Positions 1,484 to 60,342 of a stretch of 64,000 nt of DNA are shown in pieces (positions within the stretch are counted from its first letter, which is position 1; each line of letters opens with the position of its first letter). Origin of the DNA: Verrucomicrobiia bacterium (lineage in GTDB: Bacteria > Verrucomicrobiota > Verrucomicrobiia > Chthoniobacterales > UBA6821); contig JAPLTJ010000121.1 of NCBI GenBank assembly GCA_026398175.1, positions 3,357-67,356 on the forward strand, in the 5' to 3' direction. The position numbers and the translations under genes were made by a program. Under the pieces are notes generated by a model. It had not been told where the DNA came from. It saw only the letters and a list, made by a program, of their open reading frames with translations, and ran no database searches.

Positions 1484-1490
1484 GGAGGAA

Positions 1491-1520
1491 GGTTACAGGT
1501 TGTAGGTTACAGGTTACAGG
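1491..1520 (-). repeat. Heptamer arm (CCTGTAA/CCTACAA on the sense strand), 7 nt upstream of the GT2 start
   Basis: GGTTACAGGTTGTAGGTTACAGGTTACAGG fills most of a 46-nt intergenic gap. Confidence 0.7.
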
Positions 1521-1529
1521 AAAAAACAC

Positions 1530-2559: not shown

Positions 2560-3072
2560 TTACATCATAATAATTCCCTTTTCCATGGCGCGTGCCAATG
2601 TTTTCTTGGCATCGGCGCTGTAAGCACGTGTTGGGGCAATTTCATCTTCTTCGTCATTGAGAGTTGCTCCTGTTCTCTCTTTTTTCTTTTTATTGATGGA
2701 AGGTCTTCGTGAGCCTCTTTGTCCAACGGGAGCGAGCATTTGGTCCTGGGCCATGGCTGCTTGAATAGATGACTTGGTGGCGTCATCAACTGTCGTGTAT
2801 TGATTGCCAGCTACTGCTTGGTTTGTTGCGGTTGATCCAAAAACAAAAGCGGTGGAGTCATTAGACTGCATGGAATAACTATCAGGAGCAACGGTTCCTG
2901 GTGCCACGCTAACACTTGCCGCGGTGCCTCCGCTAACGCCCGTAGAAGTTTCTCCCTTGCCAGCAGTCGGAGGTGTTGAACTGTTGGAGGGAGAGGCCCG
3001 ATCGTTATTAAATGCCAGCGATGATTGAATCACTTGTGCTGGAGAAATAAGCGTGATGGGATGGTTGGCCAT
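2560..3072 (-). CDS. Hypothetical Ser/Thr/Ala-rich protein, no signal peptide
   Basis: 170-aa ORF. It is the only long ORF between two MITE-like copies. Low-complexity sequence with no recognisable domain. Confidence 0.4.
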   Translation of the reverse strand: MANHPITLISPAQVIQSSLAFNNDRASPSNSSTPPTAGKGETSTGVSGGTAASVSVAPGTVAPDSYSMQSNDSTAFVFGSTATNQAVAGNQYTTVDDATKSSIQAAMAQDQMLAPVGQRGSRRPSINKKKKERTGATLNDEEDEIAPTRAYSADAKKTLARAMEKGIIMM

Positions 3073-3082
3073 GGTTAAAAAA

Positions 3083-3106
3083 GGTTACAGGTTGCAGGCT
3101 ACAGGT
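3083..3106 (-). repeat. Heptamer arm, 10 nt upstream of the start of ORF 2560..3072
   Basis: GGTTACAGGTTGCAGGCTACAGGT is in the same family and orientation as 1491-1520. Confidence 0.65.
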
Positions 3107-3115
3107 AATCATTGC

Positions 3116-3411: not shown

Positions 3412-3538
3412 AGAGTGACAGGTAATACTACTTGAAGAAAATTTTTTAGTCATTATCGTCAGATTCAGGTATTCTATCAGGATCATTCAAGATGTCGCTG
3501 ATCAAAGTTGGCTGCAATGATGCTCGGCTTTGTGGTTG

Positions 3539-14443: not shown

Positions 14444-14510
14444 ATTCGCAGGGATGGAAGTAGATAAGAAAAAGAATTTACAGGGATGGAAGCGATGGAA
14501 GGGATACTGG
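14444..14510 (+). repeat. Purine-rich arm(s) after the helicase stop (two sub-copies)
   Basis: ATTCGCAGGGATGGAAGTAGATAAG and ATTTACAGGGATGGAAGCGATGGAAGGGATACTGG. Confidence 0.8.
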
Positions 14511-14605
14511 AAAATACTTTTTCTAAGTTCTGCCTTTTTAAATTAGCTTTCAATAAATTCTGGTGACACTTTTCAAAAAGGAGTTTCAAATTTATTAAAT
14601 TTATT

Positions 14606-14637
14606 CAATCCCTTCCATCGCTTCTATCCCTGTGAAT
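14606..14637 (+). repeat. Complementary pyrimidine-rich arm covering the esterase GTG start
   Basis: CAATCCCTTCCATCGCTTCTATCCCTGTGAAT pairs with 14478-14507 (26 WC + 2 G.U of 30, hand count). Confidence 0.8.
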
Positions 14638-16377
14638 TTCTTCTCGCTTCTGTCTTCTGTTGTTGTTGCCAGCTTCTTGCTAGCGACAGCACACGCCGAC
14701 GTGACAATGCCAGCGATCTTTGGAGATCATATGGTGATGCAACAAGGAACGTCATTGCCGATTTGGGGTGAGGCTGATCCAGGCGAGCGAGTAACAGTGA
14801 AATTTGTGGGACAACAAGCAATGACCACGGCAAGAAAAGATCGGCAATGGCGCGTGAACTTGCAAACGGTTTATCTGAGGAGTTCTCCAGATGTCTTGAT
14901 GGTTGATGGAAAAAATCATCTCGAATTTTCGGATGTGATCATGGGAGATGTCTGGCTCTGCTCCGGGCAATCTAATATGGCGTTTCCTTTGCGAGAAGCC
15001 GATGGAGGAGAGACGGCGATTATTCATGCTGAAGATGGCCAGTTGCGTTTTTTTGTTGTTCCTGAAAAGCAAGCTTTTCAACCTCAACATCAAATGGAAG
15101 GAAGTTGGGAGCGCTGCTCGCCAGAGGCTGCGGCAGGATTTTCTGCGATTGGTTATTTTTTTGGACGCGATCTTCGAATGGCAACTGGCATGCCCGTTGG
15201 ATTAATTGGAAGTTATTGCGGAGGCAGCTCAGCGCAAGCGTGGATGAGTCTTCCTGCGCTTCAGCAGTCACCTTCTTTCAGTCATTATCTTGCAGAATAT
15301 TATCAGGGCGCCCGTGATTTTTCAAAAAATCAGGACACTTATTCTCAGCGAAAAATGGATTATGAGCAAGAGCTAGCTGCCTGGGAAGAGCAGGTAGGAA
15401 CGCCCTATCAAGAAGAACTGGCAACTTGGAAACTCAAATGCAAAGAGGCTTGTTCAAAACTTTGGGCGCAGCCATTAAAACCAGATCCACTTTCGCAAAA
15501 ACCAACACCTCCTTTGCCGCCAGACGGAGGTGTTACGGCGCCAACACTGCTTTTCAATGCTATGATTGCCCCGTTGATTCCGTATGCCATGACCGGTGTG
15601 ATTTGGTATCAGGGAGAGTCTAATGAGAATAGGAAATCTCAGCATTCTTGGATGGCTCAATTTGAGAATAATAGTGTTGACAGCACCGTTTTTTCAGTTT
15701 TTGAATACCGACGTCTTTTTCAACGGTTGATTCGTTCATGGCGTGTAGCTTGGGGAGAGGGACCATTCCCTTTTTATTTTGTGAGTTTAGCTGGATTCCG
15801 TAAGTCAACGTTCGATCCTGTCGAAATGTTGATGGATGATGAAGGGGGCTTGAATCCTTGTTGGGCTTGGTTGCGCGAGGGTCAAGCCGTCGCGCTCTCA
15901 CTGCCTGAGACAGGGATGGCAGTGGCTACTGATATTGGCAATCCTAACGATATTCATCCCAAGGATAAACTTGATGTGGGACGGCGGTTGGCATTGCTCG
16001 CGCGGAAAAATCTTTACGGTCAACAAGTCGTAGCGAGTGGTCCGACTTATTGTTCGATGAAACAAGAAGAGAAAAAAATTCGTCTGACATTTAACGATGT
16101 TGGCAAAGGCCTGACTGTTGCAGCTCCGCCGTGGCGGTATGATGGGACGATCGTGATGCCGCTTTCCCTTCAAGGTTTTGCCATTGCAGGAGACGATCGT
16201 CATTGGTACGACGCTGTTGCTCTCATTGAAGGAAGTGATATCATCGTCTCCAGCGAGTTTGTTTTAAAACCAACAGCGGTTCGTTACAATTGGAAAGATA
16301 ATCCCACGGGCAACCTCTACAACAAAGAGGGATTGCCTGCGGCGTCATTTAGAACGGATTTGGATCAACCGAAGTAA
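14632..16377 (+). CDS. Sialate O-acetylesterase (SASA/SGNH-like) family protein, secreted
   Basis: The GTG start gives the signal peptide MNFFSLLSSVVVASFLLATAHA. GDVWLCSGQSNM is the esterase nucleophile motif. Confidence 0.8.
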   Translation: MNFFSLLSSVVVASFLLATAHADVTMPAIFGDHMVMQQGTSLPIWGEADPGERVTVKFVGQQAMTTARKDRQWRVNLQTVYLRSSPDVLMVDGKNHLEFSDVIMGDVWLCSGQSNMAFPLREADGGETAIIHAEDGQLRFFVVPEKQAFQPQHQMEGSWERCSPEAAAGFSAIGYFFGRDLRMATGMPVGLIGSYCGGSSAQAWMSLPALQQSPSFSHYLAEYYQGARDFSKNQDTYSQRKMDYEQELAAWEEQVGTPYQEELATWKLKCKEACSKLWAQPLKPDPLSQKPTPPLPPDGGVTAPTLLFNAMIAPLIPYAMTGVIWYQGESNENRKSQHSWMAQFENNSVDSTVFSVFEYRRLFQRLIRSWRVAWGEGPFPFYFVSLAGFRKSTFDPVEMLMDDEGGLNPCWAWLREGQAVALSLPETGMAVATDIGNPNDIHPKDKLDVGRRLALLARKNLYGQQVVASGPTYCSMKQEEKKIRLTFNDVGKGLTVAAPPWRYDGTIVMPLSLQGFAIAGDDRHWYDAVALIEGSDIIVSSEFVLKPTAVRYNWKDNPTGNLYNKEGLPAASFRTDLDQPK

Positions 16378-17717: not shown

Positions 17718-17764
17718 GAAGTGGCCCCACTTCCCACATTAAGATTTAGAAACAGATTGGCATT

Positions 17765-17785
17765 CTTACAGCCTACAGCCTATAG
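17765..17785 (+). repeat. Heptamer arm, 14 nt upstream of ffh
   Basis: CTTACAGCCTACAGCCTATAG. Confidence 0.55.
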
Positions 17786-17799
17786 TTTATAACCTTATT

Positions 17800-20255: not shown

Positions 20256-20260
20256 AATTC

Positions 20261-23432: not shown

Positions 23433-23498
23433 AGATGTGCAGCAAGATTCTTTGTTTGAAGGTTGTTCATCTGGATAGCCAGGTGCTAAGCTGATCGG

Positions 23499-24606: not shown

Positions 24607-24836
24607 ATCTGGCTAGTGGCGATTTTTCTTTTTTTGATGAATATACCTTTCACGAATGATTTTTAGGAATTTCTGCTTGTTTCTTTTTCCTCTGGCTGTG
24701 TTACCCTCGCTGACGTTATGTACGCATAGCGCTGCGCTCGGTCGCCTTGCCAGAGAAAAAAGCTCCAGCGCATAATTGTCCTAAAAATCATCCGCAAAAG
24801 GTATACGTTAGTACGAATTTAGCGGTTTGTTATTTT

Positions 24837-27482: not shown

Positions 27483-27683
27483 ATGATCACTCAACAACCG
27501 CCGCCGCATACTTCCAGTTCTCATTTGGCAGAGGCTTCTTGTGAAGATCTTTCCTTCGATTCTATTCCCTATGATGTAGAGCTCGTAGCAGCTATTGAAG
27601 AGGCTCGGGCTGAGATTAGACGTGGAGAATTTATTACACACGAAGAACTTGAAAAAGAATTCTATTCATGGTTTTTCGAATAA
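27483..27683 (+). CDS. Antitoxin of ParE-type TA cassette C
   Basis: Paralog of the A and B antitoxins, with a 16-nt overlap with its toxin. Confidence 0.75.
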   Translation: MITQQPPPHTSSSHLAEASCEDLSFDSIPYDVELVAAIEEARAEIRRGEFITHEELEKEFYSWFFE

Positions 27684-27967
27684 TTGTCTCTCCCGGAGCA
27701 AGGCGTGATCTTAGAGGGATTCAACGTTATATTTCTATTGATTCGCCTCAAGCAGCTCTACGCTTTGGTCAACGACTTCTGAAAAAACAAGAAATGCTTG
27801 GAAGTCATCCTGAAATAGGACGTGTCGTTCCTGAAATAGGTAATCGAGCGGTACGAGAGCTTATTGTTGGAAATTATCGATTGATTTATGAAGTCAATTT
27901 TTTGAACAAGGAGATTGAAATATTTCGCTACTGGCACGCTGCTCGAGGGATTCCAAAGATCCGTTGA
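27668..27967 (+). CDS. RelE/ParE-family toxin (cassette C)
   Basis: Paralog of the A and B toxins (SPGARRDLRGI, HPEIGR, YRLIYE, RYWHAARG). Confidence 0.85.
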   Translation: MVFRIIVSPGARRDLRGIQRYISIDSPQAALRFGQRLLKKQEMLGSHPEIGRVVPEIGNRAVRELIVGNYRLIYEVNFLNKEIEIFRYWHAARGIPKIR

Positions 27968-40888: not shown

Positions 40889-41133
40889 TGTCCAAAATAC
40901 ACCAATCAATAGAAGAAAAGCAGCAACTAGCCACACCGCCATCATTCGAGCGGACGCTGGAATCCAGCGACTGACGATCTTTATTTTTGTTTTCGTAAAA
41001 GTGTTGTTTAATCCTCCTCAATCTTTTTAAATTTTTTTGACGCTACTACTCAAATGTGAATTGACCTTCACCTGGATTCCAGCGTCCGCTGGAATGACGG
41101 TTAATCGAGTTGTCAAATAGCATTGAAATAAGA
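40889..41133 (+). mobile_element. MITE-like repeat, copy 4 (3' terminus truncated), between sufB and sufD
   Basis: TGTCCAAAATAC at 40889. Palindromes at 40943-40966 and 41074-41100. The core GATCTTTATTTTTGTTTTCGTAAAAGTG is shared with all long copies. Confidence 0.65.
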
Positions 41134-41185
41134 TTTTCTTCTTCTTTCTTTTTTATTGTACGTTCTTCGTAGTTAATTTTTTTAT

Positions 41186-43524: not shown

Positions 43525-43740
43525 CAGGCAGGAGGCTACAGGCTGGAGGCTAGAAGAGAGGCTGAAGGCGGAGGGCTGAAGGCTGAAGGAAAAGCAATTT
43601 TGAGTTGCTAGTTTATGATTCATGCTAGTTTTCTTTGTGGGCATTCTTTTTTGCCATATAAGAATTGTTTTCCATTAAAATGCGAGAATATCAAACTAAG
43701 TTTTCTTCAGCCTTCAGTCTTCAGCCCTTAGCCTTCAGCC
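43525..43740 (-). repeat. Arm pair (CTTCAGC family) between hypothetical gene 43740..45455 and the MidA-like gene
   Basis: On the minus-strand RNA, GGCTGAAGGCTAAGGGCTGAAGACTGAAGG pairs with CCTTCAGCCTTCAGCCCTCCGCCTTCAGCC as 10 + 10 + 7 bp, separated by a 2x2 and a 1x1 mismatch. The spacer is about 115 nt. Confidence 0.8.
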
Positions 43741-45455
43741 TATTTCAGAATCTCCCTCACATAGACATTGACCGTCCCATCATTTCCCTTTTTAACATCG
43801 GTAATCATAAAAGGGTGATCTTGATTGCGTGCAACTGAAGTCCCTTCAGCAGGAGGTACTGCTCCAGCAGGATAAGCAACGATGATGCGCATTTTTGTGA
43901 TGCCATCGGGTGTCAGCGAGGAATTATTTGATTGGTAGCGGAGGACAGAGCGGTCTTGACCAGAGGCTGTCACCGCAAAATCTCCTTGAAGATAAAGCCG
44001 CTCACCAGCAAGTCCCTGTTCTGCAAGATCGCGAAGTTGTGGTGCAGCGACGAAGCGTCCGCGAGGCATTTTTCCAGGGTCGTATGTTGGCCACAATGGA
44101 TTATTGGAATCAGGAAGAGGGCCTCTTTCGGTAATTGCCATTGGGGTTCCGGGAGCAGGAGCAAACGATGTAGGCGGCGGCAGACTGGATTGATTGGCAG
44201 CAGCAAGAGCTGGTGCCGCTTCTGCTTCGAGAGGAGTTGTTGAAGAAAGGGGCGTTGCTGTTGGAAGAGGCGCGACCTGTTTCGCAGGAGCCACTGGAAG
44301 CGCTACTGGAGTTGCAGGCAGCACTGCTGGCGTGTTCAGAGGAAGTGCACGAGCCACTTTTGGGGCAGTGACAGGCACTGCTTTTGCTGCGCGCGAAATA
44401 TTTTTTAAAAATGATTTTTTGGCAGAGGCCGCTAGTTTGTTAGAAATAATTTGTAAGATAAAGGCAGAGTTGGGCTGCACCGTTTGTTGTGTCCCTTCCT
44501 GCCTAGAAAACCCCATCTTCGTACGATAATCTGCATGCTGTGTCTCTGCCGAAATAAGATCTTTTGGAGGAAGCAAAGGAAGTCCTCCTTCGATATTGAG
44601 GTGAGCCGGTGGTGCTAGTGAAAAGAGAACAGGGCCGCTGCTTGTAGGTCCATAACTTCCATAAAGAAGCGAGATGGTGGTCAATTTTAAATGTCCATCG
44701 GGAAGTTTTTCAACATGCAGGATGGCGGAAAGGTCTAAAGGCTTTTCAAATTTAATCTCTTGGCCTGGAGTGAGCGCCTGCTCTAGAGGATTGAGATCAT
44801 TAGACATTTTTTCAAATTCTACTGCTGGTGCGACAGGCTGTGCTGCTCCACTATTAGTGCCAGTGAGTATCTCGTGTATACTGCGGGTCTGCGCATCAGA
44901 GATTCCTTTCACTTCACTAGCGCGATCGATTTTTGAAATAAGTTTACTGTTTACTGCCGGAAAAACCTGCTCCAAGAGGATTTCTGGCTGGTCTACTGAT
45001 TGAAGCAAGGCGCACATTCCTGGATAAAAAAAATTTTTTTTAGTGAGCGGAAAAGCAGCCAAGACGCGATAAGTCTCGGTGACATAGGGTGTCAAATCGT
45101 GCGTCTGATGATAATTGCGAAGAAAGTTAGAAAGGAGTCGATCGTTTAAGCGTCTCGTTTCACGTTGGCCGAGCGGACCAAAGCGCTCGAGAAGTTGTTT
45201 TGGTTTTAGGAATTCACCGCGCGGTGCTTCTGTCAACTCGAAGCGTTGAGGCTCATCTAATTTATGAAGCCTCATGAGGAGATGATAATTCACTGATTTT
45301 TCAGGATGCCCAAAAACATAGAAGCTTCCTATCCAGCAAAAAAGGGCAAACCCCATCAGCAAGAAGATAAAAATAGTCCACGCAAATATCCCGTCAACAC
45401 CATGGGCGCTGGCTCGTCGTGGTGTGGCGCTAGGAAAACGATTGTAATTTTTCAT
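43740..45455 (-). CDS. Hypothetical membrane-anchored protein with a Pro/Ala-rich linker
   Basis: One N-terminal TM (IFAWTIFIFLLMGFALFCWIGSFYVF), a PA-rich tract of about 90 aa and a C-terminal domain of about 120 aa. Start at MKNYNRF. Confidence 0.55.
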   Translation of the reverse strand: MKNYNRFPSATPRRASAHGVDGIFAWTIFIFLLMGFALFCWIGSFYVFGHPEKSVNYHLLMRLHKLDEPQRFELTEAPRGEFLKPKQLLERFGPLGQRETRRLNDRLLSNFLRNYHQTHDLTPYVTETYRVLAAFPLTKKNFFYPGMCALLQSVDQPEILLEQVFPAVNSKLISKIDRASEVKGISDAQTRSIHEILTGTNSGAAQPVAPAVEFEKMSNDLNPLEQALTPGQEIKFEKPLDLSAILHVEKLPDGHLKLTTISLLYGSYGPTSSGPVLFSLAPPAHLNIEGGLPLLPPKDLISAETQHADYRTKMGFSRQEGTQQTVQPNSAFILQIISNKLAASAKKSFLKNISRAAKAVPVTAPKVARALPLNTPAVLPATPVALPVAPAKQVAPLPTATPLSSTTPLEAEAAPALAAANQSSLPPPTSFAPAPGTPMAITERGPLPDSNNPLWPTYDPGKMPRGRFVAAPQLRDLAEQGLAGERLYLQGDFAVTASGQDRSVLRYQSNNSSLTPDGITKMRIIVAYPAGAVPPAEGTSVARNQDHPFMITDVKKGNDGTVNVYVREILK

Positions 45456-45477
45456 GGTTTTTTGTGAAAGGTAACAG

Positions 45478-45807
45478 CTATCGCTGCGGTTCAAATGACG
45501 TTCCGCATCCACAGCTGCGAGCCGCTCGCGGATTCATGATTCGAAAGCCAGTTCCTGTCAAACCTCCCTCATAATCAATAGTACAATCTGCGAGTTGCTC
45601 AAGGCTTTTTGCATCAATGAAAATAAAAGCTCCTTCTGATTCAATGACAGTGTCTCCTTCTTGCTGCGCTGCCAAGTTCATGGCATATTGCAGCCCAGCG
45701 CAACCACCTTGTTCGACAGCAAGGCGGAGACCTTGACCTTGAGGTGACTGCTTTTCTAGGACTAGTTCACGCACGTGCTTAGCCGCTTGTGGGGTAATGG
45801 AAATCAT
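45478..45807 (-). CDS. HesB/IscA-family Fe-S cluster insertion protein (ErpA/SufA-like)
   Basis: 109 aa ending with the CGCG.SF motif, plus an upstream conserved Cys (GGCAG). Confidence 0.9.
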   Translation of the reverse strand: MISITPQAAKHVRELVLEKQSPQGQGLRLAVEQGGCAGLQYAMNLAAQQEGDTVIESEGAFIFIDAKSLEQLADCTIDYEGGLTGTGFRIMNPRAARSCGCGTSFEPQR

Positions 45808-45816: not shown

Positions 45817-45978
45817 GTAACGAGTAAAGAGTAAAGGGTAAAGAGTGCAGAGACCTTCAAGTCATCTCAGTTGTAGTTCATAAAAAAAATTATCCTATCA
45901 GATCAAAATTAAATATTAAAAATAAAATAAACCTACCCAAGAACTCTTTACCCGTTACCTTTTAGCCTTTACTCTGCC
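45817..45978. repeat. Arm pair (GTAAAGA / CTCTTTAC family) in the divergent iscA-mutL region
   Basis: GTAACGAGTAAAGAGTAAAGGGTAAAGAGTGCAG and CTCTTTACCCGTTACCTTTTAGCCTTTACTCTGCC flank a very AT-rich spacer of about 93 nt. Confidence 0.75.
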
Positions 45979-47774: not shown

Positions 47775-47783
47775 AATCACTCT

Positions 47784-48084
47784 TGTCCAAAATAAAATTT
47801 ACCAACAGAAGAAAGGGCCTCTCTAATCACATTCTGCCTACACTTACACATTGCCGTCATTCCAGCGGACGCTGGAATCCAGCGTCCGTCGACACAGAAT
47901 TGATGATTTTCTAAAATAAAGTCTCACTTCTTTTTTAAAGAAAGCATTTTCTCCTTTTGCAACATCATACCAATTTTACGAAAACAAAAATAAAGATCCA
48001 GAGCCGCCTGGATTCCAGCGTCCGCTGGAATGACGTTTGGGTGTAGTGTTTTTTTATTTTAAAAAAATTAATTTATTTTGGACA
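47784..48084 (-). mobile_element. MITE-like repeat, copy 5 (full length), 9 nt after the mutL stop
   Basis: Both termini are intact. Palindromes at 47856-47886 and 48010-48035. It is the reverse complement of the copy 1/2 layout. Confidence 0.75.
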
Positions 48085-48108
48085 CCACTGAAGTGAAATA
48101 TGCTTTTT

Positions 48109-48140
48109 CCTTCAGTCTTCAGTCCTTAGCCTGTAACCTG
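48109..48140 (+). repeat. Arm (CTTCAG/CTGTAAC words), 5 nt upstream of the NUDIX-like gene
   Basis: CCTTCAGTCTTCAGTCCTTAGCCTGTAACCTG. The short partner ACTGAAG lies at 48087-48093. Confidence 0.65.
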
Positions 48141-49973: not shown

Positions 49974-51062
49974 CTAATTCCCCACTTCTCCCATCATTGT
50001 TACGAGAGGAAGAAAGAGCGCAACAATCAAGGTCCCTACGGTCAGCGCGAGGAGGAGGATGGTGACGGGCTCGAGCAGCGTCAGGAGGCGTTCCAAGTGA
50101 GTTTGTAATTCTTCCTCATAAAAATCTGCGAGATTGAGGAACATTTTTGGAAGCTGGCCAGTTGCTTCTCCAACTTCCATCATGTTCACGACCATGGGAG
50201 GAAAAAAAGCATGCTGGCGCAACGAGGCAGCCATTGCATTGCCATGCTGAATGCTATCATGAACTTCTTGGAAGAGCTGATCCACGGAGCGAGAGCCGGT
50301 CGTCTCTTTTCCTAGCTCCAGTGCTTGCAACAAGGGGATGCCCTGAGTCAGGAGTGTTCCCACCGTTCTTGTAAAGCGAGCTAAGATATTTTTTTGAAAG
50401 AGCTTTTGAAAATAGGGAGTTCTCAAAAAGATCCGATCTCGCCATAAACGACCCAAAGCTGTTTTCGAAAAAAAAATGATTACTCCCAGCAACGTCACTC
50501 CTCCAAAAATAAGAAGGTGAGGGTGTTTTATGATGTTACGACTTAAATTTAAAATCAGTTGGGTCAATGCCGGGAGGGCCTTGTCAGAGAACATTTCTGA
50601 AAAGATAACTTCAAATTTTGGGACCACAAAAAAAAGTAACAACCCTATGATGAGGAGAGCTGCTATCAGCACGATCATCGGATAAAGCAGAATGGAAAAT
50701 AATTTCTGCTGAAGTTTTTGGCGCTTGTCTTGCAATGCTGCTAGTTGTTGCAAGACATCTCCCAAGATTCCTCCACGTTCGCCAGCTTTCACCATGCTCC
50801 GATAGTCATTCGAAAAAAGTGTTGGATGCTCGCTCAGGGCACTGCTGAAGCTCTTGCCTTCGTGGAGAGAGGCGATTAGTTGAGAAATGATTTTTTTGAA
50901 ATGACTTTTAGGCTGCTGCTCTTCCAACATCAAGAGGCTTGGCAACAGTGGCATGCCAGCGTGGAGTAAGGTGGCGAGCTGATGGGTAAAAAGAGAAAGC
51001 GTTTTAGAAGAAATCTTTTTTTCAGGGAAATGTTTTTGAAAAAAAGAAGAATGCATTAGCAA
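49974..51062 (-). CDS. Type II secretion / type IV pilus platform protein (GspF/PilC family)
   Basis: Two T2SSF repeats (FTHQLATLLHAGMPLL, FTRTVGTLLTQGIPLL) and 3 TM segments. Confidence 0.8.
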   Translation of the reverse strand: MLMHSSFFQKHFPEKKISSKTLSLFTHQLATLLHAGMPLLPSLLMLEEQQPKSHFKKIISQLIASLHEGKSFSSALSEHPTLFSNDYRSMVKAGERGGILGDVLQQLAALQDKRQKLQQKLFSILLYPMIVLIAALLIIGLLLFFVVPKFEVIFSEMFSDKALPALTQLILNLSRNIIKHPHLLIFGGVTLLGVIIFFSKTALGRLWRDRIFLRTPYFQKLFQKNILARFTRTVGTLLTQGIPLLQALELGKETTGSRSVDQLFQEVHDSIQHGNAMAASLRQHAFFPPMVVNMMEVGEATGQLPKMFLNLADFYEEELQTHLERLLTLLEPVTILLLALTVGTLIVALFLPLVTMMGEVGN

Positions 51063-51075
51063 TTCTCATACTATT

Positions 51076-52110
51076 TTAAGCCTCTAAGCTCAAGCCTTGA
51101 GTTTTTGGTTTCATTAATTGCAGAGTCAGTTTTTTAAACTCTTGGACCAGGTGGTAGACAATAATAGCTACAAAAAAGGCAAGAAGACTTACGGTGATTC
51201 GTCCATAGGCCACATGAAAATTCGAATCGGGAGCTGGTACCATAAAAACTGAAAAGGAACACATTGCTATGATGCCGCGGAGAATAGGCGTATGATTTGA
51301 AAAGTAGGAAGCAAGCCATTCTAATAATCCAAATAGCCCTGCTAATCCGAGGAGATAAATAGTGATGTCATTTGCAAAAGCAACGATACCTACGAGGAAA
51401 GCCATTGCTACAAATGCTCCCAAAAAATAACCGATCATTTGTTGAAGATAGAGGTTTGCGGATTTTCCAATTTCTAAAAAAGTAATTGTGGAAATGCTTG
51501 CCATGACCAGGCGTCCCCCTTGATCTGTTTGAATAGCCACTTCTAACATAATGGCGATGGATGCCGTAATTCCGATACTAACGATGCTGCCAAAATCTAT
51601 CTTCGGATAAGTTTGAGGTGGTTGATGTTTTTTAGTGAGTGCTGCAGCAAGGTAAGTCATCACAATGGGAACAATTGTTTGAGCCCAGATTTTAAGACCC
51701 TGAATCAGCAGGTCGTTTCCGTAATCCGAGTGAGTGGCCGTTGTATAAAGTGCTAAAAAACAGGCTCCAAAAGCATACGCACTTCCAGGTCCTGAATGCT
51801 TAAAAAAAAGAGCGTATCCAAATGCAGCAATAAAGCCTGCCAGAGGAAAGGAAAGCCAAGGGGCTTGGAAAAAAGCGATCAAGAGAGCCATGCTCGTGAG
51901 GATGCCGAGTGAGAGTGCAGCAAATAGAGCTAGAACATGACTCAATGTGGGTCTTGGCAAGAGAGAGAGCGTTGCAGCCAAACTCAGTGACATGTAGCAA
52001 TGGGGAATTCTAAAACATTCCAATACTAAAACAGTTCCTGCAGTTCCAAGAGCGATGCAGAGTGCTGAAGAAGTTTTCTCGCCAAATTGAAATAGAGAAT
52101 TATTACTCAT
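51076..52110 (-). CDS. Half-size FUSC/ArAE-like inner-membrane efflux subunit
   Basis: About 10 TM helices and 345 aa. It overlaps the upstream HlyD gene by 8 nt (ATGAGTAA), in an AaeB/YdhK-like context. Confidence 0.5.
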   Translation of the reverse strand: MSNNSLFQFGEKTSSALCIALGTAGTVLVLECFRIPHCYMSLSLAATLSLLPRPTLSHVLALFAALSLGILTSMALLIAFFQAPWLSFPLAGFIAAFGYALFFKHSGPGSAYAFGACFLALYTTATHSDYGNDLLIQGLKIWAQTIVPIVMTYLAAALTKKHQPPQTYPKIDFGSIVSIGITASIAIMLEVAIQTDQGGRLVMASISTITFLEIGKSANLYLQQMIGYFLGAFVAMAFLVGIVAFANDITIYLLGLAGLFGLLEWLASYFSNHTPILRGIIAMCSFSVFMVPAPDSNFHVAYGRITVSLLAFFVAIIVYHLVQEFKKLTLQLMKPKTQGLSLEA

Positions 52111-53287
52111 TTTCTTGAATCGATTTAAAATCGTAAAGCGGCGGAACAAAAGGAATCGACTCCGGTTCTTGAAGTAATTTTAACTCCGTGTTGTAAGGAG
52201 TGGTGCGTGTGTCAATGATCACGGTCGCTTTACCTCCTGAACGAAATTCGGGTTGTTCTTTTGATTGAAGGACGATGCGGACAGGAAAGCGTGTTGCCAA
52301 TTGGATGAAATCAAACGTTGGTGGGACAGCAGATAAGACACCTTCTCCGGCGGCTTGGTTTTTTGAGGCGCCGACATAAGGAATGACGCCGCGCGCTATT
52401 CCTTGAACAATACCATCAACGGAAGTTAAGCGTCGTCCCATGATGAAAACCTTAGCGCTTTGTCCTCGCCTGACGCGGTGAATATCAATTTCTCTAAAAT
52501 TGCCCATAACGTACCAAATGCTCGAGTCAACAATGGTGAAGAGCTGTTCACCAGTAGCGGCGTAGGAACCTGGTGCAATTTTAAGATTCGTGATGTAGCC
52601 CTCACACGATGCAAAAACTTTGCAATAAGAGACTCGAAGTTCTGCATTCTTCAGTTCTGCTTCTGCTTCTTCAATGCGTGTATTTCTTCCAGCATATTCA
52701 CCATATAAATTTTCAGCACGAACGACAGCAGCCTCTGCTTCTTTGACTAAGGCTGCGCTACTTTCAGCTTCGGATTGAGATTGTTGAACTTTATCAGCAG
52801 AAGCAAAATTTCCTTCGAGAAGCGGCTTGAGGCGCTCGTAGTGCGCAATAGCATATGATGCCTTGGCCTGACGATCGCGCAAAGTCGCTTTGGCGGCTTT
52901 GATCTGTTCTTCGAGCGCGGTGACTTCAAGTCGAACAAGATTGAGTTTTGCGCGAGCACGAGCTGCTTCTGCTTCGTAAGGACGAGCATCGAGCTTGAGG
53001 ATCAGATCGCCACGTTTGACTTTCTGATTATCAACAACATGAATTTCGGTAATGGTGCCACCGACTTGAGCCGCAACGCCAACAGTATTTGCAAGAACTT
53101 CTGCATCATCGGTGCGAGGACAAAGTTCAATATTATGCCAGGCCAAATACGCGCCCAAGAAGCCTGCCAGCAGAATAAAAATGCGAATGGGGGTTACGAG
53201 CCATTGGAGCGAGCTGTCAGATTGCTCTCCATTTTTAGGAAGAGGATCAGGAATAGCGAGAGATGTTTTTTTTTCTTCAGAAGTCAT
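52103..53287 (-). CDS. HlyD-family membrane fusion protein (AaeA/YdhJ-like)
   Basis: N-terminal TM, coiled-coil hairpin, and lipoyl and beta-barrel motifs. Start MTSEEKK, which overlaps the DUF1656 stop in ATGA. Confidence 0.85.
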   Translation of the reverse strand: MTSEEKKTSLAIPDPLPKNGEQSDSSLQWLVTPIRIFILLAGFLGAYLAWHNIELCPRTDDAEVLANTVGVAAQVGGTITEIHVVDNQKVKRGDLILKLDARPYEAEAARARAKLNLVRLEVTALEEQIKAAKATLRDRQAKASYAIAHYERLKPLLEGNFASADKVQQSQSEAESSAALVKEAEAAVVRAENLYGEYAGRNTRIEEAEAELKNAELRVSYCKVFASCEGYITNLKIAPGSYAATGEQLFTIVDSSIWYVMGNFREIDIHRVRRGQSAKVFIMGRRLTSVDGIVQGIARGVIPYVGASKNQAAGEGVLSAVPPTFDFIQLATRFPVRIVLQSKEQPEFRSGGKATVIIDTRTTPYNTELKLLQEPESIPFVPPLYDFKSIQENE

Positions 53288-53523
53288 CGGGCTGAAAAAT
53301 AGAATATCCAAGTCCAAAGCGTAATGACGGCAAAAAATGCAGGAATCATTAAACCAGGAGGTTGAAAAACACGAGAGAGATGAAGGCGTGATGCCACGAT
53401 GGCCGTTCCCCAGGTCCCAATGATGCCGACGATCATGCACATCAGCCAGCCTGGAAAGTAGGCTCCCCCAATATTAATGAGAGGGTCGTGGTTCAACTTG
53501 ATGATTGCTAAATTTTCCAACAT
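53284..53523 (-). CDS. DUF1656 small membrane protein (AaeX/YdhI-like)
   Basis: 80 aa with two TM segments, located directly upstream of the HlyD gene. The start at MLENL excludes the repeat-derived extension. Confidence 0.7.
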   Translation of the reverse strand: MLENLAIIKLNHDPLINIGGAYFPGWLMCMIVGIIGTWGTAIVASRLHLSRVFQPPGLMIPAFFAVITLWTWIFYFSAR

Positions 53524-53552
53524 AGTGAATAACTGCCAACGTGCCATTGGCA

Positions 53553-53712
53553 GTGTTGAAACGTTGAAGTGTTGAAATGTTGAAACGAGGCTCATTTTAA
53601 TATGTTGCCGTGAGTTATAGAACCAAGACTGTTTTTATTGTCAATTTTTACTGAGGTTTAAAACCTCTGTTCAACGCTTCAACATTTCAAGAGCTGCGGA
53701 GCAGCATTCAAC
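53553..53712. repeat. Arm pair (GTTGAAAN / NTTTCAAC octamers) in the divergent DUF1656-TolC region
   Basis: GTGTTGAAACGTTGAAGTGTTGAAATGTTGAAACGAGG and GTTCAACGCTTCAACATTTCAAGAGC... share a perfectly complementary 13-nt core, TTGAAATGTTGAA. Confidence 0.75.
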
Positions 53713-53746
53713 TTTTTTCTTCTCGTTGCTTATAAAACTAATTTTC

Positions 53747-55300
53747 ATGAGATATCTGCGCGGACTGATTATATATCTTTTTTTCTTTTGGGGAAGTTCT
53801 CTTCTTGCTGCCGTAGAAAGTTCTTTTCAAGAAAAGCATGCTGCCGCTGCGGGACCTGAAATGCTGCCACGAAGTGGGCAGAATCCCCGCGAAGGAGGGG
53901 ATCCAGCTAGCGTTGCTACGACCTCAACTAGTAACTTAAACTGTCGCGAAGCGACTTCAGCGTCTCAGTTTTCTTCTCAAAAAAGTTACAATCTTGGAAA
54001 CTTAATTGATCTTGCGCTCAATAATAATCCTTCTACACGCGCAGCATGGAGTCAAGCAAAGGCTGCTTCAGCCTCCGTAGGAGAGGCTCGTTCTCTTTAC
54101 TATCCATGGGTAAAAACTGGTTTTACTGGAGGGTACGACCAGAATTATCTTCCTCTTGTTGCAGGTCCTAATGTCTACAACCGGACTCAGGCCACCGTTT
54201 TTTTTAGCTTAGAATATATTTTGCTCGATTTTGGACGAAGGGATGCTGATGTGGCGCGGACGATCGCTACCTTCAACGCGCTTGGTTTGACTTATCAACG
54301 GAAGTTGCAAGAGATTATTTTTGCCGTCCAGAAAGTTTATTTTGCGCACGAGGCTGCTCTTTGGAAAAAAAAGGCAGCAGAAACGAACCTCGCTTTTTTA
54401 TCAACCCTAGCTGATATGATTGCCCGAGAAAATGTTACTGGTTTGTCAGCAGGACCAGAGCTGCTCAAAGCACGAAAACAAGTTCTCGAAGCTCAGTATG
54501 AGGTGGAGGCAGCTACGGCGAAGGTCAAAAATACATTAGGAGAACTCTGCGTTGCTACGGGGCTTCCAGCTAACACTCCTTTGCAAATCACAACGACAGA
54601 GCGTCCTGTTTCCACCAAAAAATTACGAGGGGATGCCAATGAATTAGTGCGTCGGGCGCTTGTCTTTCGTCCTGATATTGCCGCTCGTGTCGCAGAGCTG
54701 AAAGCCAGTAAAGAAGCCACGCGACGAGCCATTGCTGATTTTTTTCCTGTTATTAAACTGCATTCAGACTATATCAACAGCACTTTTGGATACACTGCGA
54801 ATGATGGGACCTTGAATGGAACGCATAATAGAAATGGAAATTCTGGAGTGAATGGTTTTGTCATGGCGAGCTGGGATATTTTTGATGGTTTGGAGCGCAT
54901 CTTTAAAGTTCGGCAGCGACAAGAAGAAGATAAAGTTGCTGAAAGAAACTTAGAACAGACAAAGTTGAATACAACACGAGATGTTTGGACTTCTTACAAT
55001 GATAGTTTGACAGCAGAGCAACGTGTTAATTTTGCTGAAGGGTATGTGGCCTCTGCTAAAGAAACATTTGATGCCGTCAAAACGGCCGTGGAAACAGGGT
55101 TAACGAATGTTACTGATTTTGCTGAGTCAGGGAGTAATGTTGCTAATTCTGATTCAGAATTGGCTAGTGCTGTCGCGGATTATTCAACAGCATTGGCTCT
55201 TCTTGCGTTTTCAGTGGGGACCACTACTCCTGCGCCCTCGCGTGTTCCTCAGGACTTGGGAAAGCCCGGGGAATTGAAGTTGAAGGCGTTCTCGTTTTAG
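53747..55300 (+). CDS. TolC-family outer-membrane efflux protein
   Basis: Signal peptide MRYLRGLIIYLFFFWGSSLLA and two OEP repeats with coiled-coil segments. Confidence 0.85.
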   Translation: MRYLRGLIIYLFFFWGSSLLAAVESSFQEKHAAAAGPEMLPRSGQNPREGGDPASVATTSTSNLNCREATSASQFSSQKSYNLGNLIDLALNNNPSTRAAWSQAKAASASVGEARSLYYPWVKTGFTGGYDQNYLPLVAGPNVYNRTQATVFFSLEYILLDFGRRDADVARTIATFNALGLTYQRKLQEIIFAVQKVYFAHEAALWKKKAAETNLAFLSTLADMIARENVTGLSAGPELLKARKQVLEAQYEVEAATAKVKNTLGELCVATGLPANTPLQITTTERPVSTKKLRGDANELVRRALVFRPDIAARVAELKASKEATRRAIADFFPVIKLHSDYINSTFGYTANDGTLNGTHNRNGNSGVNGFVMASWDIFDGLERIFKVRQRQEEDKVAERNLEQTKLNTTRDVWTSYNDSLTAEQRVNFAEGYVASAKETFDAVKTAVETGLTNVTDFAESGSNVANSDSELASAVADYSTALALLAFSVGTTTPAPSRVPQDLGKPGELKLKAFSF

Positions 55301-55323
55301 AATAGTTAATAGAATAATGCTCT

Positions 55324-55452
55324 TGTTCAAAATAAAATCTACCAACATAAGAAAGTGCCTTGCTAACTACATTCTGCCTACACTTACACATTACCGTCAT
55401 TCCAGCGGACGCTGGAATGACGTCTGGGTCTAGCGTTTTTTTATTTCGAACA
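55324..55452 (-). mobile_element. MITE-like repeat, copy 6: 129-bp short form with a single palindrome
   Basis: TGTTCAAAATAAA ... TTTATTTCGAACA. Both end segments of the long form are joined at one GTCATTCCAGCGGACGCTGGAATGAC (55396-55421). Confidence 0.7.
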
Positions 55453-55491
55453 ATTTTTTTGTGTATTCTTTGTAGTTAATAAAATTTTTTC

Positions 55492-57731: not shown

Positions 57732-58403
57732 ATGCAAATTCACAGTTCTATTTCTCAATTGAATGGAGCCGCTTCAGCAGAAGGAACGCCAGCAGCATCA
57801 GGATGGAAGCCCGGCAAGATAGCAGGTCAGGTAGCAGGTAAGATAGGATCGATCTTTGGATTCAAGGCAAGTATTGCTTCTTCTCAACAACATAGTGATC
57901 ATGTTGAACAAAGTAATGCTACACAACAAGAGATTGAAAGTAGAATTATAGGGATTGATAAACACTTGCAAAGCTTATCATCAAAGGGGTCAATACAAGA
58001 ATCTGATCCTCTAAAGAGGCAGCTTCAGCAGGAGAGTTTGCACAACACAAAGATTACTCTTGGACAAGAAAAAGGTCGGTTGCTAGAACAACTAGCCAAT
58101 AAAAATTACAGACTTCCTACAAATTCAAGCAAAACCTCTGCTCCTCCTGGTTCTTCCTCGCCAGTCACTGTAGCGAGAACCCCATCACCTACAACAGGCT
58201 CGCGAGATCCAAAGCAAGTAGCGCTTCAACAATATCAAAGCGATAAAAAACAAATCGCAGCGAATCAAAGACTCATGGATCAGCCAGGTGGTATTTTTAG
58301 TGCTGCCCAAAAAAGCGCGATAGCGCAAGACACCTGGAATCGTCAGCAAAAAACAGAGGAATACGAACAGAAACATCCGGAAGTTTTGCAAAATAATTCA
58401 TAA
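57732..58403 (+). CDS. Hypothetical Gln/Ser-rich disordered protein
   Basis: 223-aa ORF with no signal peptide, TM segment or recognisable domain. Confidence 0.4.
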   Translation: MQIHSSISQLNGAASAEGTPAASGWKPGKIAGQVAGKIGSIFGFKASIASSQQHSDHVEQSNATQQEIESRIIGIDKHLQSLSSKGSIQESDPLKRQLQQESLHNTKITLGQEKGRLLEQLANKNYRLPTNSSKTSAPPGSSSPVTVARTPSPTTGSRDPKQVALQQYQSDKKQIAANQRLMDQPGGIFSAAQKSAIAQDTWNRQQKTEEYEQKHPEVLQNNS

Positions 58404-58411
58404 AAATTTTC

Positions 58412-58440
58412 TTGCCACTTTTTCAATTCACTGTTACTTT
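58412..58440 (+). promoter_or_regulatory. Candidate sigma70-type promoter for rpmI (TTGCCA-N17-TACTTT)
   Basis: The hexamers and spacing were read directly. It lies 10 nt upstream of the rpmI ATG. Confidence 0.35.
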
Positions 58441-58450
58441 TTTCCGCCTC

Positions 58451-58660
58451 ATGCCAAAAGCAATCGCACGTAGTAAAACAAAGAAGTCTGTTGCAAAACG
58501 ATTCAAAATCACTGCAACGGGTAAAGTCATTCGCTCCAAAGCAGGCCGCCGCCACTTGCTGGAATGTAAAAATTCCAAATTAAAACGCAATATGGGCAAG
58601 CGCGCTGTGGTGGAAGCTTGTGATGTTAAACACATCAAAGCTAATCTTCCTTGGGGATAA
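58451..58660 (+). CDS. rpmI: 50S ribosomal protein L35
   Basis: MPKAIARSKTKKSVAKRFKITATGKV. Confidence 0.9.
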   Translation: MPKAIARSKTKKSVAKRFKITATGKVIRSKAGRRHLLECKNSKLKRNMGKRAVVEACDVKHIKANLPWG

Positions 58661-58788
58661 GATTTTCATTGATTCACGGGACTGGATGTTCGTTTTGAAT
58701 GTTCTAACCGGGCGGGTGAGTTCCTGAATCATTAACTAACAAACAGCCTGCCCGAGGAGACTCTTTGCGAAAGCAAAGAGATTTACAT
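58661..58788 (+). promoter_or_regulatory. Structured 128-nt rpmI-rplT spacer (possible L20-responsive leader)
   Basis: CGGGCGGG...CCTGCCCG forms a long-range stem (7 WC + 1 G.U). CTCTTTGC-GAAA-GCAAAGAG is a perfect 8-bp GNRA hairpin at 58765-58784, 4 nt before the rplT ATG. Confidence 0.35.
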
Positions 58789-59157
58789 ATGCCTAGAGCC
58801 ACTAACTCTCCCGCGAGTCGCGCACGTCGCAAGCGGGTCATTGATGAAGCCGCTGGTTATCGCGGTCGCCGTTCCAAACTTTTCCGCTATGCAAAAGATG
58901 CGCGGATGAAAGCCAAGTATTGGGCTTATCGTGATCGTAAGACACGGAAGCGCAATGTTCGCTCACTCTGGATTGCTCGTCTTAATGCAGCAGTTCGTGC
59001 AGAATCAATCACCTACAGCCGTTTTATGGAAGGCATGAAAGCAGCAGCGATCACTCTTGATCGTAAAGTGCTTTCTGATCTTGCCATCAACGATGCGAAG
59101 GCTTTTTCTGTCATCGTAGCTCAAGCAAAAGCAGCGCTAGCTAAGAAAAGCAAGTAA
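58789..59157 (+). CDS. rplT: 50S ribosomal protein L20
   Basis: MPRATNSPASRARRKRV..AKGYRGRRS-like N-terminus and the expected length. Confidence 0.93.
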   Translation: MPRATNSPASRARRKRVIDEAAGYRGRRSKLFRYAKDARMKAKYWAYRDRKTRKRNVRSLWIARLNAAVRAESITYSRFMEGMKAAAITLDRKVLSDLAINDAKAFSVIVAQAKAALAKKSK

Positions 59158-59313
59158 AGAGTGAAGGGTGAAGGGTAAAGAGTGGCTGGCGCAAATAATG
59201 AAATTCCATTTTTCAAAAGACAATATTCTAGAAAAACACGAATTCCTAATTGCTCATTTGATGTTCGATCTTAAAATTCAGAACTCTTTACTCTTTACTC
59301 TTCACGCTTTACC
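59154..59313 (+). repeat. Arm pair (GTAAAGA/GTGAAGG vs CTCTTTA/CTCTTCA) between rplT and pheS
   Basis: GTAAAGAGTGAAGGGTGAAGGGTAAAGAG contains the rplT TAA. It pairs with CTCTTTACTCTTTACTCTTCACGCTTTAC as 25 WC + 3 G.U + 1 mismatch of 29 (hand count). The spacer is 98 nt. Confidence 0.85.
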
Positions 59314-59330
59314 GCGTTGTGAAACAACGC
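59314..59330 (+). promoter_or_regulatory. Small hairpin immediately 5' of the pheS start codon
   Basis: GCGTTGT-GAA-ACAACGC ends 1 nt before the ATG. Confidence 0.35.
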
Positions 59331-59331
59331 T

Positions 59332-60342
59332 ATGAATATCGAGATTGATCAGCTTCAACAAAAAGCTCTAGCGGCCTTGGAAGCCTCTTCTGATGAGGCT
59401 TCGCTGAAGGAAGCGCGAGTTCATTATCTCGGTAAAGCAGGTGCCATTTCTCAATTAAGCGAAGGGATGCGCTGTCTTTCCAAAGAGGAGCGTCCTGTCG
59501 TCGGAAAGTTGTTGAATGAGCTGCGAACCTCTTTTACAGGGGCTCTCGAGGCCAAAGAAGCACAACTTGGAGCGGTAGCAGATGCGGCTCTTTTTGCGGA
59601 GCTTGATTCAACGCTTCCGGGGACGCCTTTGATTCAAGGCGGATTGCATCCGCTCACACTCTTGACGGATCGCGCGATTCAGATTTTTCGTCGGCTTGGG
59701 TTTGCTCTTGCGACAGGTCCTGATATTGACACCGAGTGGCGTTGCTTTGATGCCCTCAATACGCCGTCGCATCATCCAGCGCGCAATGATCAAGATACTT
59801 TTTATTTTCCTGATGGTCGTTTGCTGAGAACGCAGACTTCTACCGTTCAAATTCGGGCGATGGAGCAAGCGCCACCGCCTTTGCGCATCATTGCTCCTGG
59901 ATCGGCTTATCGACGTGATGAAATTGATGCGACGCATCTTTCTCAATTCACGCAAATGGAAGTTCTCTGCGTGGCTCCTGGAATTACGTTGGCTGATCTC
60001 AAAGGAACAGCGGAGTTTTTCTATCGTGAACTTTTTGGTCCTGAAATCGAGTGTCGCTTCCGACCTCATTTTTTCCCCTTCACCGAGCCGAGCTTCGAAA
60101 TTGATGTCCGCTCGTCGCTGCTTTCTAACAAATGGTTGGAGCTTGCTGGTTGTGGCATGGTCGATCCAGCGGTCTTTAAGGCAATCAATCAAAAACGTGG
60201 CGATAATGCCTATGATCCCGACAAAGTGAGCGGCTTCGCCTTTGGCTTCGGTCTGGAGCGCCTCGTCATGATCCTGACAGGAACTCCTGATATTCGCATG
60301 CTGACCGAAAATGATCTTCGGTTTTTAGAACGGTTTGTCTGA
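59332..60342 (+). CDS. pheS: Phenylalanine--tRNA ligase alpha subunit
   Basis: Class II motifs (FRPHFFPFTEPS, GFAFGFGLERL). Confidence 0.95.
   Translation: MNIEIDQLQQKALAALEASSDEASLKEARVHYLGKAGAISQLSEGMRCLSKEERPVVGKLLNELRTSFTGALEAKEAQLGAVADAALFAELDSTLPGTPLIQGGLHPLTLLTDRAIQIFRRLGFALATGPDIDTEWRCFDALNTPSHHPARNDQDTFYFPDGRLLRTQTSTVQIRAMEQAPPPLRIIAPGSAYRRDEIDATHLSQFTQMEVLCVAPGITLADLKGTAEFFYRELFGPEIECRFRPHFFPFTEPSFEIDVRSSLLSNKWLELAGCGMVDPAVFKAINQKRGDNAYDPDKVSGFAFGFGLERLVMILTGTPDIRMLTENDLRFLERFV

Follow-up and report, generated by a model that had tools for sequence, protein, structure and literature searches.

Arrays of tandemly repeated heptamers beside genes have been known since the cyanobacterial STRR elements of 1990, and we know of no function found for them. 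A second kind of extragenic repeat, comprising the repetitive extragenic palindromic (REP) and Correia-type elements, has been proposed or shown to stabilise 3' ends, to terminate transcription weakly or to be cut by RNase III. The roles of REP and REPIN have been summarised (PMC3733652). Here we analyse a long stem between rplT and pheS of a Verrucomicrobiia bacterium, located in a stretch of 64,000 nt from contig JAPLTJ010000121.1 of assembly GCA_026398175.1 (hereafter the window, whose first letter is position 1). The stem had been picked out, and linked to pheS, in an initial annotation made from the sequence alone. We find that it is real, and its membership in the intergenic heptanucleotide repeats (long simple sequence repeats, cyanobacterial STRR, GGGNATC type) is well supported.

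Described members of this class include the GGGAATC repeats of Xanthomonas and the GGGGA(C/T)T repeats of Nostoc, in which about four units are preferred (Rehm 2015, PMC4692102). According to the same study, arrays near a stop codon (overlapping it or no more than 50 bp away) have their G-rich strand on the coding strand, and arrays upstream of starts have it on the non-coding one; each Xanthomonas genome holds 70–75 convergent (inverted) pairs, and species differ in repeat length but retain the type. Neighbouring genes showed no functional theme. In the putative G-quadruplex (G4)-forming group, transcripts started or stopped at the repeats more often than in the control group; the authors favoured a G-quadruplex and found no function. 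A separate study described TAACTGA heptamers just upstream of starts in Beggiatoaceae, Cyanobacteria and Bacteroidetes and proposed binding by S1, cold-shock or CsrA-type proteins (MacGregor 2015, PMC4679880). As cited there, a general excess of heptamers has been ascribed to polymerase slippage (Mrazek 2007).

The arms of the rplT-pheS stem, 30 nt each at 59154–59183 and 59283–59312, are 87% complementary, with 99 nt between them. Counted without gaps, they form 26 Watson-Crick and 3 G.T pairs, with one other position. Recounting also reproduced the 29-position stem of the initial annotation (25 Watson-Crick and 3 G.U pairs, plus one A.G) and its placing of the rplT TAA (59155–59157) inside the left arm. 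Its boundaries needed small corrections: the 29-nt right arm ends at 59312 rather than 59313, 19 nt and not 18 nt before the pheS ATG at 59332, and the 29-nt arms are 101 nt apart instead of 98. Folded as RNA, 59140–59340 reached −63.2 kcal/mol on the + strand (z = −6.6, matched by none of 200 shuffles) and −55.9 kcal/mol on the − strand (z = −4.7). The predicted duplex of ~30 bp compares with the ~20 bp or more of double-stranded RNA that characterises RNase III processing stems. A separate 7-bp hairpin (GCGTTGT-GAA-ACAACGC; 59314..59330, + strand) ends 1 nt before the pheS ATG, which is not preceded by a Shine-Dalgarno sequence.

Both arms are tandem heptamer arrays, which the initial annotation had missed (Tandem Repeats Finder: period 7, 4.6 and 4.3 copies). 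The left arm (59154..59183, +) reads GTAAAGA, GTGAAGG, GTGAAGG, GTAAAGA and a final GT, and its first unit contains the rplT stop; it is 83% purine, has no C and carries TAA or TGA in three of three frames. The right arm (59283..59312, +), its complement in the pheS leader, reads ACTCTTT, ACTCTTT, ACTCTTC, ACGCTTT and AC; it is G-poor (1 G) and free of stops in all frames. The 99-nt loop between them (59184..59282) is AT-rich (GC 31% versus 44% for the window). With one mismatch allowed, the pattern GTRAAGRGTRAAGR occurs 11 times in the window against 0.2 expected, and all of these matches lie at the rplT-pheS locus or upstream of mutL. The recurrence of AGAACTCTTTAC at 45940 upstream of mutL, already pointed out in the initial annotation, is present and was a correct clue.

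As in the intergenic heptanucleotide repeats, the units run head to tail in at least three copies, and the arrays are non-coding; at the stop the coding strand is the G-rich one, and before the start it is the non-coding strand. The four or more G3 tracts of the subclass of Rehm 2015 (PMC4692102) are missing: the left arm has two GGG runs and most sister arrays have none. Because most units are without G3 tracts, a quadruplex is not the common cause of the class. A literature search returned no bacterial paper with these repeat strings and none linking heptanucleotide repeats to Verrucomicrobia. Two independent Logan assemblies of the same strain confirm the sequence from 59269 onward, that is, the right arm only, since both break inside the loop.

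The same architecture stands at four other, unrelated intergenic regions of the window, which argues against the stem being a pheS-specific device. Period-7 arrays number 11 in the window versus 1.9 in shuffles, 10 of the 11 are intergenic, and period 7 is the most frequent period across 1.33 Mb of Verrucomicrobiota loci. The five inverted pairs of short-repeat arrays, rplT-pheS included, have arms of 30–38 nt, spacers of 80–108 nt and loops of 23–33% GC, and are flanked by unrelated housekeeping genes with no common functional theme. At 43533..43741 (− strand), an AGGCTGA array overlaps the stop (43742–43740) of the gene at 43740..45512 and is followed, after a 108-nt AT-rich spacer, by a CCTTCAG array upstream of a methyltransferase ATG at 43509. 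The element at 45817..45974 lies between divergent genes for an Fe-S protein (45478..45807, −) and mutL (45993, +); it consists of a GTAAAGR array, an 81-nt spacer (GC 23%) and a CTTTACY array, each arm forming the G-poor leader of its own gene. The element at 53541..53700, built of 8-mers (GTTGAARY), also separates divergent genes, here Ytca-like (−) and OEP (+), and is orthologous and ~95% identical in the contigs L084 and L085 of relatives. The fifth pair (14444..14645, +) reaches from a DEAD-box helicase stop to an SASA esterase start and has arms of ~9-nt units (GGGATGGAAGC).

No homology was detected among the loops of the window elements (alignment A1), and at least five unit families occur in this one genome. 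The window units have the common pattern AGRNTRN (alignment A1). Four single arrays sit 5–9 nt upstream of start codons: 1490..1521 (−; sense CCTGTAA x4, ending 6 nt before a glycosyltransferase ATG and without an inverted partner), 3080..3106 (−; sense CCTGTAR x3.6, upstream of the gene at 2560..3072), 17764..17791 (+; CTTACAG, CCTACAG and CCTATAG, upstream of ffh with its ATG at 17800) and 48109..48140 (+; CCTTCAG and CCTGTAA units, with 5 nt between its end and the ATG at 48146).

The arms follow a fixed order. In every window pair, the G-rich arm comes first on either strand, at or overlapping a stop codon, and in every case the downstream gene reads the G-poor, pyrimidine-rich strand; arrays after an upstream gene are purine-rich and start in or beside its stop codon. 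Across 19 pairs, the purine-rich arm was 5' on both strands in 14, and none was clearly reversed. A scan of metagenomes for (GTRAAGR)x3 yielded at least 120 loci with 133 arrays, where a partner was defined as the same unit, inverted, within 350 nt. Among the matches listed, 39 of the 133 arrays had a partner in purine-then-pyrimidine order and 4 in the reverse order, so that inverted pairing, which also marks the class, is found five times in the window and at least 39 times against 4 in the metagenomes. The metagenome pairs include at least one on an Acidobacteriota contig and have loops of mostly 13–80 nt; judged by eye with rough open reading frame (ORF) calls, they lie in co-directional, convergent and divergent contexts, with stops no more than ~10 nt from the first arm.

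We also counted stop codons in 22 pairs collected irrespective of unit, comparing the arms that a reading ribosome would enter with those that it would exit. Stop codons averaged 2.6 in entering arms and 0.6 in exiting arms, and all three frames were closed by 17 of 44 entering and 1 of 44 exiting arms. The leaders of 85 genes of the clade are 10–13% G at −10 to −1 and show no Shine-Dalgarno peak. We infer that two constraints at gene borders account best for the fixed polarity: an array at a 3' end would have to close all reading frames, and one at a 5' end would have to be G-poor, as all leaders of the clade are. The observed arm order is the only one that satisfies both. Stop codons in all frames were rejected as the cause, because their enrichment is real but cannot be separated from purine richness. 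Mimicry of Shine-Dalgarno and anti-Shine-Dalgarno sequences (GGUGA and UCACC in GTGAAGG units) was set aside as not general across units, and crude ORF-based orientation statistics across GC-rich loci (22 versus 13) were too noisy for use.

Relatives were recovered through the protein database and their contigs compared, with the spacers of ten being folded. PheS assigns the window to the order Chthoniobacterales of the Verrucomicrobiota. The best species representative matches the PheS of the window at 73% identity; among the recovered contigs, identity is 95% for L089, 90% for L083, 88% for L088 and 84% for L084/L085. The relatives keep the rplT-pheS synteny, and the spacers of these five could be aligned neither with the window nor with each other, yet in all of them a purine-rich repeat follows the stop and a complementary, pyrimidine-rich one precedes the ATG. 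The arms are GCTGAAG heptamers in L083, CACAAAGA-type units in L088 and L089, and in L084/L085 the 9-mer family found at 14444–14645 in the window. The more distant L005 and L036 are likewise structured and unalignable, with TTGCTGA and GTTGAAG units, while L087 and many others have a plain hairpin-plus-T-run terminator after rplT. End-to-end folding was predicted for nine of the ten spacers (z = −2.8 to −8.4), the exception being the most distant, L001, with a z of only −1.5. The comparison with related genomes proposed in the initial annotation thus found synteny kept and spacers that are unrelated but structured, and the case for structure at this site stands.

Several features of the same gene neighbourhood were recorded in passing. 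In L089, rplT (285–660) has an in-frame TAA (GCGCGGATGTAAGCC), owing to a sequencing error or to pseudogene status, and the gene caller accordingly reports a 40-aa fragment. The pheS and pheT genes are adjacent in the window, whereas relatives have a PIN-domain toxin-antitoxin pair inserted between them; insertions lie at 7157–7822 in L083, 11055–12389 in L084, 1998–2725 in L090 and 11062–17021 in L087, where insertion sequence (IS) elements and a Y1 transposase gene separate the two genes. Directly upstream of rplT, the rpmI-rplT spacer (window 58672–58785) has three helices that six relatives conserve with compensatory changes (alignment A2) and no Rfam match, which makes it a candidate autoregulatory leader for ribosomal protein L20.

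Array turnover could be followed in the conspecific samples L084 and L085, which are 99.86% identical over 14 kb. Outside homopolymers they differ by a single indel, one 8-nt unit of the Ytca/OEP array (4 units in L084, 5 in L085), which indicates that arrays add and drop whole units over population time scales; the rplT-pheS element itself was seen in one strain only. At one conserved site upstream of fusA2 in an Acidobacteriota lineage, three relatives (EF-G identity 96–98%) have GTGAAGR hairpins with different unit numbers and entirely different loops, and a fourth has unrelated sequence; the loops at this site differ in L098, L214 and L215. The EF-G of L098 is 98% identical to a protein from an Acidobacteria metagenome-assembled genome. 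In L214, the arms are a nearly perfect 35-nt mirror of each other, down to the order of unit variants. Template switching at hairpins is an established mutational mechanism, and the L214 match fits either such arm-to-arm templating or strong selection for pairing. As a separate observation, the Acidobacteriota fusA2 leader (L098 9300–9350; L212–L216 ~1440–1500) contains GATTCACCTCCTTTT, a near copy of the 16S rRNA 3' end; this anti-Shine-Dalgarno sequence, ~25 nt upstream of the GAGGA of fusA2 itself, could mask the ribosome-binding site.

In 58300–59500, we found no T-box (cmscan at E ≤ 1), no L20 leader or other Rfam family, and no canonical promoter or terminator passing the scan, nor the short GC-rich stem, 3–8 nt loop and U-tract of an intrinsic terminator; across 44–64 kb, canonical promoters and terminators were not enriched. 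The loop encodes no Phe-rich leader peptide, its sole ORF being one of 55 aa with a GTG start and scattered Phe codons, and the scan gave no terminator-like site of the kind expected for a pheST attenuator of the Escherichia coli pheM type. The Rfam scan and inspection of the loop ORF thus bear out the statement in the initial annotation that neither a T-box nor an attenuator is visible. The letters of its promoter-like motif are present in the loop (TTGCTC at 59250–59255, N16, TAAAAT at 59272–59277); TTGCTC matches TTGACA at 3 of 6 positions and falls below the scan threshold. A pheS promoter in the loop is nevertheless plausible, since many relatives have a plain terminator after rplT and the divergent elements must have promoters within or next to their loops. 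A common −10 hexamer setting the transcription start at the first unit was rejected, with TAAAAT-like sequences upstream of only 3 of 16 leader arrays.

The initial annotation had also pointed out that three of the four non-Watson-Crick positions are G opposite T and pair only in the + strand RNA; as an argument for a + strand RNA, this did not survive. The whole window has positive GC skew and negative AT skew on the + strand (G > C, T > A), a strand skew of the replication type that predicts + strand G.T mismatches whatever is transcribed, and the argument therefore carries no weight. Consistent with this confounding, the element at 43533–43741 (counted at 43559–43741), with its genes on the − strand, has 4 G.T versus 1 A.C on the + strand. 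Pooled over elements, sense-strand counts were 20 G.U versus 13 A.C (not significant), and the metagenome elements showed no consistent sense-strand preference, with either strand favoured.

Taken together, we interpret the rplT-pheS element as an inverted pair of short tandem arrays of a known class that acts as a generic transcript-boundary hairpin, a reading to which we assign a probability of about 0.5; the boundary function is the part that we infer. Its arrays would change by replication slippage of whole units, as was shown for the sister Ytca/OEP array and presumably holds here, and the arms would be kept alike by arm-to-arm templating or by selection for pairing. In an RNA spanning both arms, the arrays would zip into a ~30-bp duplex forming the boundary hairpin, which may stand in for the plain terminator that relatives have after rplT. 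The hairpin might protect 3' ends, terminate weakly or direct RNase III processing of read-through RNA. The duplex would mask the pheS leader in read-through RNA, and in pheS mRNA started from a loop promoter the unpaired, G-poor array would be the sole 5' untranslated region.

Several results weigh against this interpretation. In two of the five window elements the flanking genes are divergent, yet the arms are matched; if the promoters of such elements are in the loops, the two arms are never on one RNA, which would point to a process or function at the DNA level. The sense-strand G.U preference expected of selected RNA pairing was seen neither in the window nor in the metagenome elements. 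No U-tract follows the right arm, so the element is not a classical intrinsic terminator, and its 99-nt loop is far larger than those of known terminators. Pairing is not obligatory, as single, partnerless arrays exist, and the arms of the L085 array are unequal (5 versus 3 units). Finally, the link between stop codons and polarity is blurred by purine richness, and stop codons are absent from the Xanthomonas unit GGGAATC.

A more general extension of the boundary-hairpin reading is doubtful. Inverted short-repeat hairpins of fixed polarity may serve Verrucomicrobiota, Acidobacteriota and Xanthomonas alike as a general boundary device that renews itself, with slippage and arm-to-arm templating regenerating the long hairpin between genes. 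Translation rather than a quadruplex would set the polarity, with the stop-rich, G-rich arm facing incoming ribosomes and the G-poor arm serving as leader. In genomes without Shine-Dalgarno-led initiation, such hairpins would take the place of canonical terminators and shield the genes downstream from read-through RNA.

The strong rival is a near-neutral origin, in which slippage and hairpin-templated copying produce the arrays as by-products with no function of their own, tolerated wherever they are harmless: outside genes, with the G-poor strand in leaders and the stop-rich strand after genes. We consider this explanation possible, if tentative, and it stays strong because of the matched arms between divergent genes, the lack of a strand-specific pairing signal, the large loop and the absence of a U-tract. 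Very fast turnover points the same way (the L089 spacer is unalignable at 95% PheS identity), as do the unit-number polymorphism within one species, the many unit families in one genome, the absence of a functional theme among flanking genes, which also holds for the repeats of Rehm 2015 (PMC4692102), and the heptamer excess attributed to polymerase slippage by Mrazek 2007, as cited in PMC4679880. Against a purely neutral origin, a hairpin follows rplT in nearly every relative examined regardless of its sequence, and the Ytca/OEP element shares ~95% identity between the window and L084, compared with 89.5% for the 5.3-kb block around it. In addition, the 39:4 polarity among the matches listed holds between convergent genes too, where no leader constraint applies.

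The arrays could instead be binding sites for a protein that reads the 7-nt period on RNA or DNA and thereby sets translation or transcription of the neighbouring genes. HutP, which binds UAG-N4 repeats, and TRAP are models for a binder acting on RNA, and S1, cold-shock or CsrA-type proteins could play this part as suggested for TAACTGA. The arrays end 0–25 nt before starts, inside the ribosome footprint, in an organism without Shine-Dalgarno sequences; the shared AGRNTRN pattern and the presence of the GTGAAGR unit in both Verrucomicrobiota and Acidobacteriota are also in keeping with a binder, and the same was argued for TAACTGA by MacGregor 2015 (PMC4679880). We regard it as unlikely, however, since at least five unit families in one genome are at odds with a single specific binder, and relatives have quite different units. 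Binding also leaves the inverted partner and the polarity unexplained, and no candidate protein was identified.

Very unlikely is a pheS-specific hairpin that couples pheST to, or uncouples it from, rplT read-through in place of an attenuator or T-box, neither of which is present. The geometry is suggestive: the right arm covers −20 to −49 of pheS, hairpins fill the rplT-pheS spacer in relatives, and a ribosome terminating at the rplT stop codon, where the left arm begins, would melt the lowest part of the stem. The identical architecture nevertheless occurs at four unrelated window loci and beside many genes elsewhere, nothing senses Phe or tRNA-Phe, and the arms are replaced by unrelated repeats at 90–95% PheS identity.

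Just as improbable is a role for non-B DNA, either as G-quadruplex and i-motif arms or as a cruciform modulating a loop promoter. The positional rules are those of the Xanthomonas and Nostoc repeats, and many metagenome copies are (GGGTGAA)n, a G3N4 pattern. The left arm, however, has its two GGG runs only, such runs are absent from the sister arrays AGGCTGA, AGGTTAC, GTAAAGA and GTTGAAAC, and CTCTCAA and TTGCTGA are examples of the units found in relatives. Extrusion of a cruciform is very unfavourable with a loop of 99 nt. A miniature inverted-repeat transposable element (MITE) or foldback element with heptamer arrays as terminal inverted repeats is hardly tenable: the total size (156–209 nt) is near that of true MITE- and REP-dimer elements in the window and different hairpins occupy one conserved site in Acidobacteriota relatives, but the loops of the window copies are not homologous and cannot be aligned (A1), their arm units differ, no target-site duplication is visible and no transposase is associated, and a Correia-like identity was rejected on the same features.

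The window contains other repeats that can be told apart from the heptamer pairs. A dispersed repeat of ~300 nt (84–94% identity) occurs at 2264–2548, 3109–3418, 24375–24600, 40939–41134, 47777–48091 and 55303–55460. It contains inverted pairs of CGTC ATTCCAGC GGAC GCTGGAAT CCA, with an 8-bp stem, a 4-nt loop and a CCA tail, which are the CGTC-1 type REP of Di Nocera 2013 (PMC3733652), a type not reported there from Verrucomicrobia. These REP dimers look quite different from the heptamer pairs, and two copies abut heptamer leader arrays (3080–3106 and 48109–48140). A 164-nt MITE-like element with 27-nt terminal inverted repeats (TATACCTTTCACGAATGATTTTTAGGA) lies at 24642–24805 and is also found in L084 (~9150–9320) at another locus, the rpmI-rplT spacer. 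Three copies of a ~360-nt repeat (~71% identity) lie at 19879–20256, 23063–23433 and 27588–27954, and a 27-nt inverted repeat that is not made of tandem units (28272–28298 and 28422–28448; 123 nt apart, 85% complementary) was also noted. A 5.3-kb efflux-gene block (window 50001–55299; L084 1063–6338) is 89.5% identical to L084 and ~75% to L083, while PheS is nearer L083 (90% versus 84%), which suggests that the block was exchanged between lineages.

The results add two phyla, Verrucomicrobiota and Acidobacteriota, to those with gene-adjacent heptamer arrays. The positional rules (G-rich at the stop, G-poor before the start, one inverted order) persist without quadruplex-capable arrays, which removes the leading structural explanation and points to translation constraints and hairpin formation. 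For annotation, the striking stem beside pheS is a warning that such a structure may be a generic repeat and not a new amino-acid-sensing leader. Heptamer arrays also break short-read assemblies.

Compared with known systems, the element shares with bidirectional intrinsic terminators its position directly after rplT, where relatives have one, and an A/G-rich 5' and U/C-rich 3' side on both strands; it differs in having a 30-bp stem and a 99-nt loop instead of a short GC stem, a 3–8 nt loop and a U-tract. Like REP, BIME and REPIN elements and Correia-type MITEs, it is an extragenic inverted repeat just after a stop that would form a long hairpin in read-through RNA. Those elements are dispersed copies of one conserved sequence spread by transposase, whereas arms and loops here are locus-specific and growth is by slippage; the arms are direct repeats and not self-complementary, unlike the units of REP and REPIN, which are palindromes of 20–40 nt with a GTAG or CGTC tag in many near-identical copies, and self-BLAST of the window gave no dispersed copies of the rplT-pheS element.

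With the TAACTGA repeats and STRR, the arrays have in common that they lie a few nucleotides before starts, over the expected ribosome-binding site, in genomes poor in Shine-Dalgarno sequences. As with TAACTGA, the downstream genes follow no functional pattern and one orientation has stops in all frames. In that system, however, the stop-containing orientation faces the downstream start, whereas here it is the stop-free, G-poor strand; 1 of 170 sets is inverted there, and a single unit sequence contrasts with the many found here. The closest match is to the Xanthomonas and Nostoc repeats, with ~4 tandem 7-nt units, non-coding location, inverted pairs and positional rules. The differences are the hosts (Verrucomicrobiota here, Acidobacteriota for L098), other units with several families per genome, the lack of G3 tracts in most units, long (80–108 nt), AT-rich loops, and the use of divergent intergenic regions, which are under-represented in Xanthomonas. 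The element thus fits the class on every positional feature while failing the quadruplex feature, which makes it a new member in new phyla.

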